Translations under genes and position numbers: made by a program | Assembly: GCA_958295715.1 (NCBI GenBank) | Contig: OY282371.1 | Location: forward strand, 1,406,267-1,470,266 | Source of the DNA: an uncultured Dehalococcoidia bacterium | Lineage (GTDB): Bacteria; Chloroflexota; Dehalococcoidia; Lucifugimonadales; GCA-2712585 | Length of the DNA: 64,000 nt | Direction of reading: 5' to 3' | Notes under the pieces: generated by a model | The model's input: only the letters and a program-made list of their open reading frames with translations | What the model was told of the DNA's origin: nothing | Database searches by the model: none | Shown: piece after piece, positions 12,400 to 62,700 of the stretch | Position numbering within the stretch: position 1 is the first letter of the stretch | How the letters are laid out: every line of letters begins with the position of its first letter

Positions 12400-12775
12400 G
12401 GCTCCCCTCTCGTCATTCCCGCGCAGGCGGGAATCCATCCCATCCCCTCTTTTACCTCAAGGCAATCGCACACCGGCGCAAAGAGCCAGTAAGAGCTAGT
12501 CTTGTTACGGACAAACCGGCTTAAGGTCTCCATCCCTCGTTAGGGGAGAGACGGGGGCGGGGGTCGCGGCGCAACGGGTGGCGGGTTGCCCAAGCACAAC
12601 GGAGTGGGGGGAGGGGATGGATTCCCGCCTTCGCGGGAATGACGGGAGGGGCGGCGGCGGGTATGACGGCGGCGGGCGGGCCGGAATCGGGAAGACCCCA
12701 ATCCAAAACCAACGCTCCGCAAAACAAAAATGGGCACACGTGCCCTTCCCGCCTGCGCGGGAATGACGGCGGGTA
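12400..12775. repeat. REP/NIME-like repeat cluster
   Basis: Fwd unit at 12412-12436 and rev unit at 12619-12643. Composite rev unit at 12697-12769 = hairpin module (GGGCACacGTGCCC at 12732-12745) fused to a REP. Confidence 0.85.
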
Positions 12776-27224: not shown

Positions 27225-27701
27225 ACGCCTCTCGCCCCCTGCCGGCCATCGACCCTCCCTTCCGTCATTCCCGCGCAGGCGGGAAGGGCACGCGTGCCCG
27301 CTTAGGTTTGAAGAGCGTGGTTCTGCGTTGGAGGCTTTTGCCCACCCCTATCCGCATTCCCGCCCTCTTATCCGTCATTCCCGCGCAGGCGGGAATCGAT
27401 CCCCTCCTTCCGGCATTGCGACGGGGCAACGGCGCAACGGCTCGCAACCCCGGCCCTCTTTCCGTCATTCCCGCGCAGGCGGGAATCCATCTTCCACCCC
27501 TCTATTACGCCAAGGCGACCCGCGCAAATCGCCGGCAAACGCTTGCCCCCTTTCCGGCCAAGACCCTGAATGCCCCCCATATCGTCAAGGAGACAAGGAC
27601 GGCAGCGCCACGAGGGACGCGCCGGAAACGCCTCTGCGGGTGAGACCGGAATTCGGGGCGCCGGATTTGGGTCGGGGCCTCCCTGGATTCCCGCCTGCGC
27701 G
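27225..27701. repeat. REP/NIME-like repeat cluster
   Basis: Composite fwd unit at 27264-27335 (REP + GGGCACgcGTGCCC + T-rich tail). Fwd REPs at 27374-27398 and 27464-27488. Module C at 27556-27664. Truncated rev REP at 27685-27701. Confidence 0.85.
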
Positions 27702-28124: not shown

Positions 28125-28264
28125 GTGAAACCTCCCTTAAGTTATGTTCTCTGAAGCTGCTGCGCCCAAACCTCGCCCACAGATTAACCATAAATCAGGC
28201 TGTGCGGGGATATTTACGACGGGGCGAGCGGCATGGCGCCGCGACTTCAATTCAGCGAAAAAGT

Positions 28265-28292
28265 ATTATAACACAAAAGAGCATTTTGTCAA
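28265..28292 (-). promoter_or_regulatory. near-consensus promoter TTGACA-16-TATAAT
   Basis: Minus-strand hexamers at 28292-28287 and 28270-28265. About 135-nt leader to the ATG at 28124 with a GGGAGG RBS. Confidence 0.5.
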
Positions 28293-28337
28293 GTACTTAT
28301 GCGCCGGATTTCAGGGGAAATAGGGGGATGGGGGGAT

Positions 28338-28443
28338 GGATTCCCGCCTGCGCGGGAATGACGGACAGGAGGCGGGAATGCGGACAGGGGTAGGCAGAAG
28401 CCTCCAACGCAGAACCGGCTCTCTTCAAAACTAAGTGGGCGCC
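28338..28443. repeat. REP unit plus reverse hairpin/terminator-like module
   Basis: Rev REP at 28338-28362. Reverse module B at 28399-28443 (ccaacgcagaaccggctctcttcaaaactaagtGGGCGCCC), about 60 nt downstream of the stop of the 590-aa gene and in terminator orientation. Confidence 0.8.
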
Positions 28444-28502
28444 CCGGTCCCCGCTTACCCGCAAGCGCCAGCTAGTCTACCCACCCCGGCAGCCGGCGCC
28501 GG

Positions 28503-34625: not shown

Positions 34626-34680
34626 GCCGTGGGGGGAACGGTTGCGTCTCCCCCCATCCGCCCTTCCCGCCTACTATTCC

Positions 34681-34996
34681 GTCATTCCCGCGCAGGCGGG
34701 AAGGGCGCGTGCGCCCACTTTGTCTTGACGAGCGTTCGCCCTGCTTTGGGCTGCTAGATTCCCGCCTTCACCTCTGTTCCGTCATTCCCGCGCAGGCGGG
34801 AAGGGCGCGTGCGCCCACTTTGTTTTGAAGAGCGTTGGTCCTGCTTTGGGCTGCTAGATTCCCGCCTCCCCCATCCGTCATTCCCGCGCAGGCGGGAAGG
34901 GCGCGTGCGCCCACTTTGTTTTGAAGAGCGTTGGTCCTGCTTTGGGCTGCTAGATTCCCGCCTCCCCATCCGTCATTCCCGCGCAGGCGGGAATCC
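34681..34996 (+). repeat. tandem array of 3 composite units (100, 96, 95 bp) plus terminal REP
   Basis: Units start at 34681, 34781 and 34877. Each unit = GTCATTCCCGCGCAGGCGGGAA + GGGCGCgtGCGCCC + ACTTTGTTTTGA.. + tggtcctgctttgggctgctagattcccgcc. Closing REP at 34972-34996. Confidence 0.9.
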
Positions 34997-35146: not shown

Positions 35147-35225
35147 GGATTCCCGCCTGCGTGGGAATGACGGGAAGGGGGGCGGGAATGACGGAAGGGG
35201 GAGAAAAGGGAATGACGGATAAGAG
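35147..35225. repeat. reverse REP followed by tandem GGGAATGACGG half-units
   Basis: GGATTCCCGCCTGCGTGGGAATGACGG at 35147-35171, then gcgggaatgacgg and gggaatgacgg repeats. Confidence 0.8.
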
Positions 35226-36082: not shown

Positions 36083-37190
36083 TTGCAGGAACTGAGGCAT
36101 CAACTCCAAGAGATGACCCTTAAGGTCGGCCGGGTGCTCTCCCGCCTTTGACGTCTCAGCCAAGGAACGGGAGATAGCGAAAATCGAAAAGGAGGCCTAT
36201 GAGCAGGCCTTCTGGGACGACCCCCAGTCCGCTCAGGCCCAAATGCGCCGCCTGTCGCGCCTCAAGGAGACGGTCGGCGTCTGGCGCGGCATGGAGGAGC
36301 AGGGCGCCGCCCTTCTGGAACTGGTGGACATGTCCTTGGCGGAACAGGACGACTCCCTGGCCCATCAGCTGGCCGACGAGACCCACGCCTTCTTCACGGC
36401 CTTGGAGGAGAAGGAGGTGGAGATAACCCTATCAGGCCCCTACGACGACCGCCCGGCCATCCTATCGATACAGTCGGGGGCGGGGGGCGTCGACTCCCAG
36501 GACTGGTCCCGGATGCTCCTCCGCATGTATTTGCGATGGGCCGAGCGCCACGGCTGCCACGCCCAGGTCCTTGACCTGTCCGAGGGGGAGGAGGCCGGCA
36601 TTAAGAGCGCGGCCCTTGAGATAGACGGCAGTCTGCCCTTTGGCTATCTCAAGGCTGAAAAGGGCGTGCACCGGCTGGTGCGCCTCTCCCCCTTCAACAG
36701 CGACCACCTCCGGCATACCTCATTCGCCCACGTGGAGGTGCTGCCGGCCGCCGGTGAGGAGGACGCCGAGGTGGACATACGCCCCGAGGACCTGAAGATA
36801 GACTTCTTCCGCTCCAGCGGCCCCGGGGGGCAGAACGTGCAGAAGGTGTCATCCGCCGTGCGGCTCACCCACCTGCCCACCGGCCTGGTGGTTTCCTGCC
36901 AAACGGAGCGCTCCCAACGCCAGAACCGGGAAAACGCAGCCACCATCCTGAAGGCGCGGCTCCTCCAGTTGCGTATGGAGGAGCGGGCCAAGGAGTTGGC
37001 GGAGTTGCGGGGCGAGCGCGCCCCCGCCGAGTGGGGCAGTCAGATTAGAAGTTACGTGCTTCACCCCTACAAGCTGGTGAAGGACCACCGCAGCGAGTTC
37101 CAGGTATCCGACGCCGACGCCGTGCTGGACGGCGACATCGACGACTTTCTCAAGGCGTATCTGCTGGCGACGGTGGCCGAACAGCCGTGA
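36083..37190 (+). CDS. prfB: peptide chain release factor 2 (join 36083..36148, 36150..37190; programmed +1 frameshift)
   Basis: TTG start 5 nt after AGGGAGG. 22-codon ORF0 ends CTT TGA C (36146-36152). The +1 frame continues DVSAKEREIAKIE... and contains SPF and GGQ motifs. Combined length about 368 aa. Confidence 0.9.
36146..36152 (+). promoter_or_regulatory. prfB +1 frameshift site CUU UGA C
   Basis: In-frame UGA at 36149-36151 after the Leu CTT codon. The downstream ORF is in the +1 frame (36150). Confidence 0.85.
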
Positions 37191-37191
37191 A

Positions 37192-37219
37192 GGGCGCCTA
37201 GGCGCCCCTTTAGTTTTGA
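37192..37219 (+). terminator. intrinsic-terminator-like hairpin after prfB (also a copy of repeat module B)
   Basis: GGGCGCC-TA-GGCGCCC starts 2 nt after the TGA and is followed by CTTTAGTTTTGA. Confidence 0.6.
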
Positions 37220-38110
37220 CGAGCGCCGGCCCTGCGTTAGGGGATGGATTCCCGCCCCTCCTTTCCGTCATTCCCGTGAAAACGGGAATCCAGGAACCCT
37301 ACACAGCAGAACCAACGCCCCAAACCCCGGCGTCGACCCGTCGGTTGCGCCCTCAACGCGGGTCTTGGCCGTAACGGGACTAGCGCTTACCGGCGATTTG
37401 CGCTGTTGCCCTAGTCTAATATAGGGAGGAAAGATGGATTCCCGCCTGCGCGGGAATGACGGAGTGGGGCAGGCGGGAAGGGCGCGGGTGCCCGCTTAAG
37501 TTTTGAAGAGGGCTGTTCCTGCGTTTGGGGGCTTCCTGGATTCCCGTTTTCACGGGAATGACGGATAAGAGGGCGGGAATGGCGATTGCGCTAGAGTCTT
37601 GCCAAGGGAGGCGTGGCCTCCCGCTTGCCTGCTAAGGGGCCGCCAAAGCGTTTACCCTTTCCCGTCATTCCCGCGCAGGCGGGAATCCATCTTCCTTACC
37701 GCTGCTGCGACGCCTTGGAGCCACGCGTTGGCCGCCCTCCGGCCATTGCCCGCCCCTCCCCTTTTCCGTCATTCCCGCGCAGGCGGGAATCCAGGAAGGT
37801 TTCGACTCAAAACCGGCGCCCCGAATTCCGGCCTCGCCCGTAGAGGCGGTTCCGGCGCACACGCCCCCTCGTGGACGCTGCCGTCCTTGTCCCCTTGACG
37901 AAATGGGGGCATTCAGGGTCTTGGCCGTAAGGCCCCGGCCCTTACCTGCGCGGCGCGGCCCTGTCGCAACCAAGTAAGGAAGATGGATTCCCGCCTGCGC
38001 GGGAATGACGGAGGGAGGGGAGCGGGAATGACGAAGTGGGGCAGGCGGGAAGGGCGCGTGGGGGAGCGGGAATGACGTGGGGGGTAGGCGCGGCCTCGCG
38101 CCGGGGGAGC
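37220..38110. repeat. largest REP/NIME-like mosaic cluster
   Basis: REP units at 37267-37291 (variant GTCATTCCCGTGAAAACGGGAATCC), 37436-37460 rev, 37528-37552 rev variant, 37664-37688 fwd, 37768-37792 fwd and 37985-38009 rev. Partial composite at 37469-37530. Module C at 37813-37926. Half-unit run at 38000-38080. Confidence 0.9.
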
Positions 38111-41722: not shown

Positions 41723-41914
41723 CACGGCCCCCGGCCCCGCGGCGTTGCCCTCTCCTACTCCTTTCCCATCACTCCTGCCTTCTGTTCGTCATTCCCCCTC
41801 CCCCCTCGTCGCGCCGGGCCAACCGCACTAGGGCGCGCCCACCCATATGACACCCGCCGGTAGGTCAGAGCCGAGGCGTGGTCTATGGGGTCTGTTCTAC
41901 GACGTGGCCTTCCT

Positions 41915-43031: not shown

Positions 43032-43110
43032 GATGGACGGCAGGAGTTCCTGAACAGGGGCTAACCCGCCAGCGAGGCGGCAAGGGCGTTCAGTAAGACG
43101 CGGGTCGAGG

Positions 43111-45803: not shown

Positions 45804-45832
45804 ATTATACATAGTTGAGTTTATATTGTCAA
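45804..45832 (-). promoter_or_regulatory. perfect consensus promoter TTGACA-17-TATAAT for hsp20
   Basis: Minus-strand hexamers at 45832-45827 and 45809-45804 in an AT-rich divergent intergenic region. Confidence 0.6.
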
Positions 45833-60639: not shown

Positions 60640-60986
60640 GGCTTTCATGGGCGGGGTTGCCTCCCGTCCGTCATTCCCGCTCTCACCCTCTTATCCGTCA
60701 TTCCCGCGCAGGCGGGAAGGGCGCGTGCGCCCACTTAGTTTTGAGTAGCGCTGGTTCTGCGCGTTAGGTGTCCGTCATCCGCCGCCGGGTTACCCCCGTT
60801 CCAACGCGCGCCCCTCCCTTCGTCATTCCCGCTCCCTCCCTTCCGTCATTCCCGCGCAGGCGGGAAGGGCGCGTGCGCCCACTTAGTTTTGAGGAGAGCC
60901 GGTTCTGCGTTGGAGGCTTCCCGGCGTTCCCACCTCCCCACTCGTCATTCCCGCTTCTCCCTCCCGTCATTCCCGCGAAGGCGGGA
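60640..60986. repeat. REP/NIME-like repeat cluster, right end interrupted by IS
   Basis: Composite fwd units at 60697-60768 and 60845-60917 (GGGCGCgtGCGCCC hairpins). Half-units at 60669 and 60830. REP at 60966-60986 is cut after GCGGGA. Confidence 0.85.
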
Positions 60987-61977
60987 TGTGAATTCACATT
61001 TCAAGTGCAACACCTTGTTCCGGAAAGTTTCGGCTGGGGTCCGGTAGTCCAGACACTTGCGAGGGGTGTGGTTGTAGGCTTGGACCAGTTGGGTGAAGCG
61101 CTCCTCGGACACCGCCGCCAGGTCGGTCTTGCGGGGCAGGGTCCTCCGCAGCCGGCCAATGGCGTTCTCCACGCCGCCCTTCTGCCAGGGGGAGCGGGTG
61201 TCGCAGAAGAAGGTCTGGATGCCGAGGGCGTGGAGAAGGTGGTGGCGGGCGAACTCCGTGCCGTTGTCGAAGGCGACCGTCTGGCGCCACTCCTGGGGCA
61301 AGGGCCCCAAGGGCCTCGGCGATAGCAGTGGCGATGGGTCCCGCGGCCTTCCCCGGGGGTCTGAGGGCTATGAGCAGGCGGGTGCAGCGCTCGTGGAGGA
61401 TGAGGACGACTTGGCCGTAGGCGCTGAAGAGCATGGTGTCGGCCTCCCAGTGGCCCGGCTTCTGGCGGTCATCCGCATCCTGAGGACGCTCTTCCAAGGG
61501 CAGGCGGTCGGGGATGAAGGACACGGAACTGCCGCCCCGGCGCCCCCGCCAGCCTCGTCTGGACTTGCGCCGGGGCAGGTAGAGCCGCCAGGAGTAGTCC
61601 TTCCTGCGGGCTATCTGGGCGTAAATGAACCGGTAGATAGACTCATGGGAGATGACCGTCCTTCCCTTCTCCAGGGCCAGCCGGCCGGACACCTGCTCCG
61701 GGGACCAGCCTAGCTCGAGACGGGCGAGGACATCCTCCCGAAGGGTGGGGTCGCGGGTCAGCCGGTGACCGTGCCAACGGCGGGCGTGGGCCTGTTGGTC
61801 GGCGTACTTGGGCCGGTAGCCGCCATTGGCCGAAGGATTGCGCTTCAACTCCCGAGCAACCGTTGATGGCGAGCGATCCAGAGCTGCCGCGATTTGGCGG
61901 AGGGAGTGTCCCGTGGCATGTAGTCGGGCAATTTCACACCGTTCCACAATGTCGAGCTGCGTGTAGTGGAGTCCCAT
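60945..61977 (-). pseudogene. IS30-family transposase, frameshifted
   Basis: N-terminal HTH + core in the frame of ORF 60994-61977 up to ..AIAEALG. C-terminal ..LPQEWRQTVAFDNGTEF..PWQKGGVENAIGRLR in the frame of ORF 60945-61310. The shift maps to a GGGG run near 61305. The distal frame has no stop inside the IS. Confidence 0.75.
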
Positions 61978-62021
61978 GGCAACACCTCAATTAAGTGTTG
62001 CACTTCGTTTGTGAGTTTAGC
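60987..62021 (-). mobile_element. IS30-family insertion sequence (about 1035 bp)
   Basis: Imperfect terminal IRs sharing ..TCACA....AAGTGCAACAC (left at 60987-61013, right at 61995-62021). An IS30-type DDE transposase lies inside. The flanks reconstitute one REP unit with a GA duplication (60985-60986 / 62022-62023). Confidence 0.8.
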
Positions 62022-62700
62022 GAATCCATCCCCCCTTATCCCCGTTGCGACAGGTGGCTGGCGCGGGATTGCCTCCCCGTCCGTCATTCCCGCGCCCTCC
62101 CTTCCGTCATTCCCGCGCAGGCGGGAATCCATCTCCTCTTATCCCCGTTTCGACAGGTGGCTGGCCCGTGGTTGCCGCCCCGTCCGTCATTCCCGCTTCC
62201 CTCTCCCGTCATTCCCGCGCAGGCGGGAATCCATCCCCTCTTATCCCCGTTGCGACAGGTGGCTAGCGCGTGGTTGCCGCCCCGTCCGTCATTCCCGCCC
62301 CCCTCCATCCGTCATTCCCGTGAAAACGGGAATCCAGGAACCCTTCATGGCAAAACCAGCGCTTCAACCCCTAGCGTCGCCTTGTGGGCGGCCCTCCGGC
62401 CCGCCGCTCGTAGGGGTTGGGTTGTCCGTTCATATGATTAGAGGGGGAAGATGGATTCCCGCCTGCGCGGGAATGACGGATTCGGGGGGCGGGGTTCGGG
62501 GCGCTGGCTCTGCGTTGAGGCCTTCCTGGATTCCCGCCTGCGCGGGAATGACGGGAAGGGAGGCGCGGGCGGTGGTAGCGAGCGTGACCGGTGGCCCCGG
62601 GGCTTGGGGCGTTGGCTTTGGGGTGTAAGGTTCCTGGATTCCCGTTTTCACGGGAATGACGGATAGGGGGGCGGCAATGACGGATTCGGGCGGGAATTCA
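62022..62700. repeat. REP/NIME-like cluster with a 3 x 102-bp tandem array
   Basis: Tandem units begin at 62022, 62124 and 62226 (..GAATCCATCCCCTCTTATCCCCGTTGCGACAGGTGGCTGGCGCGTGGTTGCCGCCCCGTCCGTCATTCCCGC..). REPs at 62106, 62208 and 62311 (variant) fwd. REPs at 62453, 62528 and 62636 (variant) rev. Confidence 0.9.

Follow-up and report, generated by a model that had tools for sequence, protein, structure and literature searches.

The dRS3 repeats of Neisseria border spacer (RS) modules of about 50-150 bp, of which there are more than 100 families, and form with them the Neisseria intergenic mosaic elements (NIMEs), whose arrays are strain-variable (PMC1797815). NTS (the Neisseria Transformation Sequence) is a palindrome that, as a hairpin of single-stranded DNA (ssDNA), is targeted by SsnA, a GIY-YIG nuclease; the base that weighs most in SsnA binding is the C following the palindrome, and Ssn-related motifs are reported across several phyla (PMC11893778). 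A further relevant system is that of REPINs, in which the spacer between two inverted repetitive extragenic palindromes (REPs) keeps its hairpin structure and varies in sequence; a class of REP doublets that end in A and T runs has been read as a co-opted terminator (PMC3337134). In this study, we analysed a 64,000-nt stretch of the genome of an uncultured Dehalococcoidia bacterium (contig OY282371.1, positions 1,406,267 to 1,470,266; hereafter the window, with coordinates counted from its first letter), and in it a repeated element that we call module B. Module B is 55-60 bp long and consists of a short GC hairpin followed by a T-rich run, placed between Neisseria-type palindromic repeats that we refer to as REP units. 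An earlier note on this DNA had taken it for a mobile, terminator-like cassette. We consider it probable that module B is instead one spacer (RS) module family in NIME-like mosaic arrays built on palindromes of the NTS/dRS3 type.

The window shows the NIME layout, with module B and other module families lying between REP units. In line with what is described for Neisseria, 20-bp ATTCCC-N8-GGGAAT repeats flank modules of about 50-150 bp, the arrays vary between strains, an insertion sequence (IS) has entered at a repeat, and module B fits the definition of an RS element (PMC1797815); the difference lies in the host, which is a Dehalococcoidia/SAR202-like member of the Chloroflexota with DNA of 65% GC and not a Neisseria. 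The REP units match NTS and share with the Ssn motifs a hairpin with constant flanks and a covarying interior, whereas module B is not an NTS and the REP units fused to it lack the SsnA-relevant bases 3′ of the palindrome (PMC11893778). Similar to REPINs, abundance differs between close strains, and the two-armed copy, whose left REP is degenerate, would place two inverted REPs around a spacer of variable sequence that keeps its structure; unlike REPINs, the REP is here of the NTS type, linked to Ssn and not to RAYT, and most B copies are single-armed and sit in longer arrays (PMC3337134).

Other described repeats resemble the locus in part. Much-repeated palindromes with the look or action of a terminator include the TRIT of Mycobacterium (PMC3152330) and inverted DUS/USS pairs (cited in PMC2267715), and in such a comparison the two-armed form of module B would be bidirectional. 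TRIT, however, is distributed narrowly around the stop codon and tied to gene termini, whereas B lies 1-289 nt from stops and is not co-oriented in about half of the cases. The REP/BIME sequences of E. coli (bacterial interspersed mosaic elements) are also extragenic palindromes in mosaic clusters and have been proposed as stabilisers of mRNA 3′ ends rather than as efficient terminators (PMC3993855); they differ from the present repeats in having unrelated sequences and a different associated enzyme family. As to miniature inverted-repeat transposable elements (MITEs), inverted arms are present in one B copy, and the sole clean indel (141 nt) is flanked by half-REP direct repeats with no obvious target-site duplication.

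Repeat family and anatomy

The REP unit has the sequence CCGTCA-TTCCCGC-GCAG-GCGGGAA-TCCAKG, and its stem occurs 33 times in the window. The dRS3 definition, ATTCCC-N8-GGGAAT, is matched exactly 24 times versus 0.02 expected, and the 28-nt NTS consensus CGTCATTCCCGCGMAVGCGGGAATCYRG is found 17 times at one mismatch or fewer versus none expected, for example at 37767-37794 and 62526-62553. Unfused REP units are exact copies of the NTS/dRS3 motif. This identity concerns the REP units and not module B, and in those REP units that are joined to B the T and the C behind the palindrome are missing. Solo half-REPs, CCGTCATTCCC(GC), also lie about 20 nt upstream of many full REP units (window 35163-35201, 60668-60690 and 41778-41805; sister-strain contig L119 17030-17180), and the breakpoints of the mosaic fall at REP loops and stem edges.

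The hairpin motif of module B, GGGCRCNNGYGCCC (GGGCRC-NN-GYGCCC), has nine exact matches in the window versus 0.19 expected from dinucleotide shuffles, with starts at 332, 12732, 27286, 34703, 34803, 34899, 37480, 60719 and 60867, and a longer palindrome, GGGCGCC-TA-GGCGCCC, occupies 37192-37207. A profile of the hairpin and a 45-nt tail recovered 12 copies, eight of which are joined straight to a REP stem at the junction GGGAA/GGGC. Scaled up from these 12 copies in 64 kb, some 400 would be expected in the 2.35-Mb chromosome. The repeated hairpin with its T-rich tail and its fusion to REP units, both reported in the earlier note, are therefore real, as are the stem variants listed there (G-C, A-T, one G.T and one seven-pair palindrome). 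Six of its coordinates (34706, 34806, 34902, 60717, 60866 and 37479) had to be shifted by 1-3 nt and the others were exact. The position 12732 is among the latter, and the copy there sits in a divergent promoter region, with mtnA on one side and a small bPH-like gene on the other. The interval 34681-34780, from which the analysis started, is the first unit of a tandem array with a 96-nt period. The copies and related features are as follows.

294-375, both strands matched by nhmmer: two-armed module B, 178 nt downstream of the phosphohexomutase (pgm) gene (minus strand)
12687-12745, minus strand: REP-fused module B with the A-T stem GGGCACGTGTGCCC, in the divergent spacer between mtnA (minus) and the bPH-like gene (plus)
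27286-27338, plus strand: module B with the A-T stem GGGCACGCGTGCCC, antisense to both of its minus-strand neighbours
28396-28443, minus strand: truncated module B, 59 nt after the 590/603-aa gene
34678-34993, plus strand: tandem array of 3.3 copies with 95% matches (Tandem Repeats Finder), including 34681-34780; unit order REP(+) fused to the B hairpin, T run, arm, half REP(-)
34685-34702, plus strand: REP stem-loop TTCCCGC-GCAG-GCGGGAA, an example of a B-fused REP
34703-34763, plus strand: module B of the first tandem unit, 77 nt after the SIMPL stop (nhmmer E = 4.7e-13)
34803-34863, plus strand: module B of the second tandem unit (nhmmer E = 7.4e-16)
34899-34959, plus strand: module B of the third tandem unit (nhmmer E = 7.4e-16), 100% identical to the second
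37192-37252, plus strand: module B with hairpin GGGCGCCTAGGCGCCC, beginning 1 nt after the prfB stop, no REP fusion
37480-37536, plus strand: module B, GGGCGCGGGTGCCC, containing one G.T pair; 289 nt beyond the prfB stop and running into a REP(-) at 37541
38052-38064, plus strand: remnant with the 5′ half of the B hairpin only (GGGCGCGTGGGGG), fused to a half REP
60719-60774, plus strand: REP-fused module B, antisense to the xanthine-dehydrogenase-like and IS30-family genes, both minus (Pfam)
60867-60922, plus strand: REP-fused module B, antisense, in the same spacer as the 60719 copy; best nhmmer match (E = 7.7e-17)

The first tandem copy may serve as the type, with the hairpin GGGCGCGTGCGCCC (-7.9 kcal/mol) and the tail ACTTTGTCTTGACGAG. 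Across copies, the consensus reads GGGCGC-GT-GCGCCC, ACTTWG, GTTTTGARGAG, CGYYGGYYCTGCG and TTGGRGGCTTCCTGG, after which a REP unit of opposite orientation follows. Like-oriented REP units have 5′ flanks of two classes, ..GATGGA and ..TTCCTGGA, and the tail of module B always leads into the TTCCTGGA class (the CCTGGA class of the REP(-) flank). In other modules, GC palindromes of different sequence take the position that the B tip has with respect to REP(-), for example GCCCCGGGGC at 62594 and CCGGAATTCGGGGCGCCGG with TTTTGAG after it.

At 294-375, the two-armed copy forms a long imperfect palindrome, GCAGGACCAAC..TCAAAAC..hairpin..GTTTTG..GTTGGTCCTGC, for which folding gives a hairpin about 70 nt long (RNA -40.9 and -45.4 kcal/mol, z -3.9 and -3.7; DNA z -3.4). 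This hairpin ends at a REP(-) at 390-419 and has a degenerate REP remnant on its other side. Single-armed units, by comparison, fold no better than shuffles (z -0.1 to -1.3). We read 294-375 as the most complete form of the element, an inverted NTS doublet with a palindromic spacer, similar to a REPIN. The full layout would then be NTS(+), arm, tip hairpin, arm′, CCTGG and NTS(-), and module B would correspond to the GC-rich palindromic tip together with one arm of such a doublet. The common form would be a derivative from which the left arm has been lost, so that the stem of the left NTS abuts the tip at GGGAA/GGGC. The T run, GTTTTGA, would be the right-arm complement of the left-arm TCAAAAC, and because it complements an A run in this way, a single-armed copy reads on one strand as a hairpin followed by Ts. 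It is this palindromic architecture that would give module B its resemblance to a terminator.

Differences between strains and the host lineage

Two metagenome contigs from the European Nucleotide Archive (ENA), L119 and L167, represent a sister strain with about 93-98% identity to the window over genes. Comparison with them shows that module B has been gained, lost and inverted between two strains, and in this loose sense the mobility proposed for the element is borne out. In the SIMPL-EndoV spacer, the window has three tandem B units, whereas the sister has one B unit and a second joined to a REP of opposite orientation. REP units are joined to B in either orientation. The divergent DCD/TauE spacer of the sister contains a 141-nt REP+B+REP block with half-REP direct repeats at both ends, which the window lacks. 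Upstream of the amidohydrolase gene, B has opposite orientations in the two strains (window 27286(+); L119 1866(-)). In the mtnA/bPH spacer the copy at 12687-12745 is kept (L167 9479) and the sister has two extra copies, one of them degenerate.

The prfB-ribBA spacer measures 1786 nt in the sister versus 926 nt in the window, and the L119 copy at the prfB stop is missing about 20 nt that comprise the 3′ half of the stem and the entire T run. A more distant relative has 21 nt between its prfB and ribBA stops, and no hairpin there. From the hairpin-free gap of this relative, together with the loss in the sister, it follows that the prfB copy is an insertion and is dispensable within the species. 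The same spacer contains once in the window (37790-37985) a module of about 215 nt that starts GGAATCCAGGAAGGTTTCGACTCAAAACCGGCGCCCCGAATTCCGG and contains CCCCTTGACGAAATGGGGG; this module is present four times in the sister strain (L119 11874-13285), where the spacer is nearly double. The prfB gene itself (36084-37190) has the classical +1 programmed frameshift site CTTTGAC at 36146-36152, and the long open reading frame (ORF) at 36243-37190 is its post-frameshift part.

The nearest named relatives of the PurL encoded here are Dehalococcoidia and SAR202-cluster bacteria, at 68-76% identity, and the relatives of the IS30-family gene are named Chloroflexota. Neither the REP unit nor module B was present in about 298 kb of loci from related genomes (57-60% GC, many of these loci mutually orthologous), and for this reason the repeat system looks like an expansion in this lineage. 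This suggests that a repeat system of the Ssn type has recently expanded in this lineage specifically, or was imported. The gene ssnA encodes a single-domain GIY-YIG protein of about 94 aa and often has the motif at its flanks; a crude search for GIY..YIG among the ORFs of the window and L119 found no ssnA.

The IS30-family element at 60988-62024 (gene 60994-61977, minus strand) has interrupted a REP unit precisely at the 3′ edge of its stem (GCGGGA-IS-ATCCATC), the same REP edge that joins module B. Pfam recognises no integrase (rve) domain in its 327-aa ORF. The genome encodes elsewhere a 336-aa paralogue (P0085; 97% identity across 69% of the query) that does have an rve match, and the copy in the window may be defective.

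Stem pairing, terminator-like features and placement

Variation in the stem had been taken in the earlier note, which saw in module B a terminator-like cassette, as a sign of selection on pairing. We aligned 21 copies from the window and the two sister-strain contigs. Two of the six stem pairs are invariant, one has changed on both sides, one includes two U.G rows and two have unpaired exceptions, which in one case are owed to a misaligned 16-nt variant. The doubly changed pair is G-C in 12 distinct rows, A-U in five and G.U in one. Overall, 97.2% of cells are paired versus 94.2% in column shuffles, and a two-by-two table of the eight distinct stem types yields P of about 0.07 (Fisher, one-sided). 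The A-T stem is found at three loci (332/345, 12745 and 27286) with differing tails, and may stand for anything between one and three events. In addition, the stem has twice been extended by one pair, independently and with the palindrome remaining perfect, in GGGCGCCTAGGCGCCC at 37192 and in GGGCGCGCGCGCGCCC in L167; both extended variants have a 6-bp stem with a 4-nt loop.

These data support the claim of selection on pairing in one respect, in that self-complementarity is kept in the variants, and weaken it in another, given that change on both sides is confined to one pair of six and that the A-T form may trace to a single event. Its attribution to an RNA terminator is not supported. The adjacent REP hairpin, a known ssDNA target, covaries likewise (GC..GC to GT..AC), and for this reason maintenance of a hairpin at the DNA level would explain the kept pairing equally well. 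Templated correction of quasi-palindromes is a known mutational process, and paired stem changes could also be produced in this way. The stem interior is variable together with the stem-proximal bases, while the outer GGGC/GCCC and TTTTG..GAG are nearly invariant. Taken together, the self-complementarity of the stem appears to be maintained, on thin evidence that does not indicate the level, RNA or DNA, at which pairing would matter.

Compared with typical terminators the stem is short and weak. It comprises 5-6 G-C-rich pairs with a 4-nt loop, and its energy lies between -6.1 and -7.9 kcal/mol for most copies; the two 6-bp variants reach about -12, and the copy at 37192 has the strongest stem in the window (-12.1 kcal/mol). 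There are 3-6 T among the first 8 nt after the stem, the first two of which usually read AC or GC. Nowhere does the tail vary more than right beside the stem (ACTTTG, ACTTAG, GCTTAAG, ATTTTTG, ACTCATG and others), and the near-invariant TTTTG begins 5-7 nt after the stem. Intrinsic terminators are defined by a U-rich tract of 7-9 nt immediately after the stem (PMC3993855), and the T run of module B does not appear to be placed like a U tract that follows a hairpin "immediately". A d'Aubenton-Carafa-type score, which is rough and uses modern energies, was negative in 21 of 21 copies.

A lenient scan for terminator-like sites over 60 kb returned 32 sites versus about 40 expected from shuffles. 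Module B accounts for 11 of these, about five others are intergenic and the rest lie inside genes; B is thus the main terminator-like motif in a genome without a general excess of such motifs. Promoter-like sites are about threefold over shuffles in two of the three 20-kb segments, and terminator-like sites are enriched in none. Promoters with a perfect match to the sigma-70 consensus (TTGACA, 16-17 nt spacer, TATAAT) lie at 28265-28292 and 45804-45832, both on the minus strand. We also considered TTGAAG within module B as a promoter, and rejected it, as no -10 element lies at a usable spacing and B has no promoter-like match. Short G/C hairpins without a T run stand straight after several genes (490-523 on the minus strand, 34626-34670 and 43060-43080), examples being CCCCCC-TTAC-GGGGG behind the phosphohexomutase gene and, in a convergent spacer, CCGCC-AGCGA-GGCGG. 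These may be the native gene ends of this organism.

Placement was judged on a gene map based on GC content at third codon positions and checked with Pfam. In four of the seven window regions module B is co-oriented downstream of a gene, at 178 nt from pgm, 59 nt from the 590/603-aa gene, 77 nt onward from SIMPL, and 1 and 289 nt from prfB. One region (12745, mtnA/bPH) is a divergent spacer and ambiguous, and in two (27286; 60719 together with 60867) the module is antisense to both neighbours. L119 adds one compatible region and one divergent-spacer region (17077) that is not compatible. The sample shows no orientation bias: placement is about as random orientation would give, although seven regions provide little statistical power. 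Several copies had been described as sitting where a terminator is expected, and this placement does not bear out terminator function, given that about half of the regions are antisense or divergent, that the distances to the upstream stop (1, 59, 77, 178 and 289 nt) are widely spread and that the best-placed copy, beside the prfB stop, is broken in the sister strain. Of the copy that follows the 590-aa gene (28396-28443), only the tail and the 3′ stem half are left; its nhmmer match begins at model position 8, and its fold has no B hairpin for want of the 5′ stem half.

Competing explanations and significance

How should a hairpin followed by Ts, repeated between genes, be explained? One possibility is a portable intrinsic terminator, selected as a hairpin plus U run in RNA and spreading by supplying termination where canonical terminators are few. 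It has in its favour the 11 B sites of the lenient scan, set in a region where such sites are not in excess overall (32 versus about 40 expected) and where most non-B matches are inside genes, as well as precedents for repeated terminator motifs in TRIT (PMC3152330), DUS pairs (PMC2267715) and the REP doublet class (PMC3337134). Yet these sites have a 5-bp stem of -6 to -8 kcal/mol followed by two bases that are mostly not U, with a negative, if rough, score in all 21 copies. Placement is similarly divided. In four window regions B follows a gene on the same strand, one copy begins 1 nt after the prfB stop, and in the spacer 28125-28502 the module lies between the end of the upstream gene and a consensus promoter; the regions of 27286 and 60719/60867, however, are plainly antisense, and of the divergent copies the one at 12745 is ambiguous and the one at L119 17077 incompatible. 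The copy at prfB is broken in the sister strain and, judged from the relative with a hairpin-free 21-nt gap, is an insertion and not an ancestral terminator, and that of the 590-aa gene is stemless. Stop distances of 1-289 nt also contrast with the narrow distribution of TRIT. Pairing kept in the stem variants, with G.T variants on the sense strand only, would fit a terminator, although not exclusively. On this small sample, terminator selection is unsupported, and we regard the explanation as unlikely. Weak, incidental termination or 3′-end protection at co-oriented copies is nevertheless plausible, with REP/BIME, the REP doublet class, DUS pairs and TRIT as precedents.

It is also conceivable, though again we would not expect it, that the B hairpin is a recognition site for a protein that acts on folded ssDNA, for instance a recombinase, a transposase (RAYT or IS200/IS605 type) or a second nuclease of the Ssn kind. 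The constant GGGC..GCCC and GTTTTGARGAG would then be protein contacts around a variable interior, a pattern comparable to that of NTS, where SsnA reads the flanks and the hairpin and leaves the loop free to vary. That B-fused REP units lack the C weightiest for SsnA binding could mean that a different enzyme is served, which is compatible with this explanation and tests nothing. Within the window, however, no candidate gene was found and a crude GIY-YIG scan was negative; the sole mobile-element gene is that of the IS30-family copy, whose ends are unrelated to B, and several B copies are truncated or degenerate and yet have not been lost. A small RNA gene or other cis-regulatory RNA of which module B forms part is very improbable. 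A hairpin plus U run is the usual 3′ end of a small RNA, but no Rfam match was obtained at gathering scores, with only noise in the arrays at relaxed thresholds, promoter-like sites do not occur within or just upstream of B copies, and the copies are tandem and in both orientations between unrelated genes.

The reading of module B as a spacer module of NIME-like arrays accommodates these observations, and several points weigh against it. The left NTS of the two-armed copy is degenerate, so that the REPIN-like form is represented by one good example. The sample covers about 100 kb, from two strains, of a 2.35-Mb genome, and the orientation test, with seven window regions, has low power. Both non-Watson-Crick stem variants are G.T on the B-sense strand, which fits RNA and ssDNA folding equally, and outside coding sequence B makes up 11 of the roughly 16 terminator-like sites in 60 kb, which would suit a terminator role in a genome where canonical terminators are scarce. 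Finally, no transposase, Ssn or RAYT gene behind the mobility turned up in the window, where no search aimed at RAYT was made. Under the NIME-like reading, copies would have been multiplied, deleted, inverted and re-joined through recombination or slippage at REP hairpins. Self-complementarity of the tip would have been kept through folding, as ssDNA during replication or recombination or as RNA, or through templated correction of quasi-palindromes. Co-oriented copies would probably act at most as weak terminators or 3′-end stabilisers, as a by-product and not as the reason for the family.

Beyond the window, the sequence of module B was not found in the metagenome, viral and plasmid collections searched, and we found no description of it. 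A search of genome contigs with the 15-mer GCAGGCGGGAAGGGC gave at least 118 chance matches, with REP or B at none of the loci listed. The stem-independent pattern GTTTTGANGAGCGYYGGYYCYGC had 45 matches in a metagenome search, all in one gut-bacterial coding stretch (read as rplL), and viral contigs contained no match to the B tail or the REP/B junction. Of the array, blastn against a plasmid collection matched only the NTS part (there to a N. gonorrhoeae chromosome) and left the B sequence unmatched. The kind of element is already known, from the RS modules of dRS3 arrays and from REPIN-like hairpin repeats.

If this conservative reading is right, the value of the finding is mostly descriptive: one uncultured, marine-type Chloroflexota lineage has seen an expansion of NIME-like arrays that contain the NTS/dRS3 motif exactly as in Neisseria, and the spacer modules of such arrays include a hairpin that mimics a terminator. 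For annotation, this is a reason for caution, as a hairpin, a T run and one covarying pair are insufficient to call a terminator. To our knowledge, transcript ends have been little studied in Chloroflexota. We give a rather small chance to the bolder proposal that the B copies are working portable terminators, which a SAR202-like genome otherwise without hairpin-plus-U terminators would acquire through NTS/Ssn-type arrays, with shuffling of the arrays rewiring transcript ends. Were B modules indeed to terminate transcription, repeat arrays would be distributing regulatory punctuation in this lineage, and the modules would offer a handle on transcript ends in the phylum.

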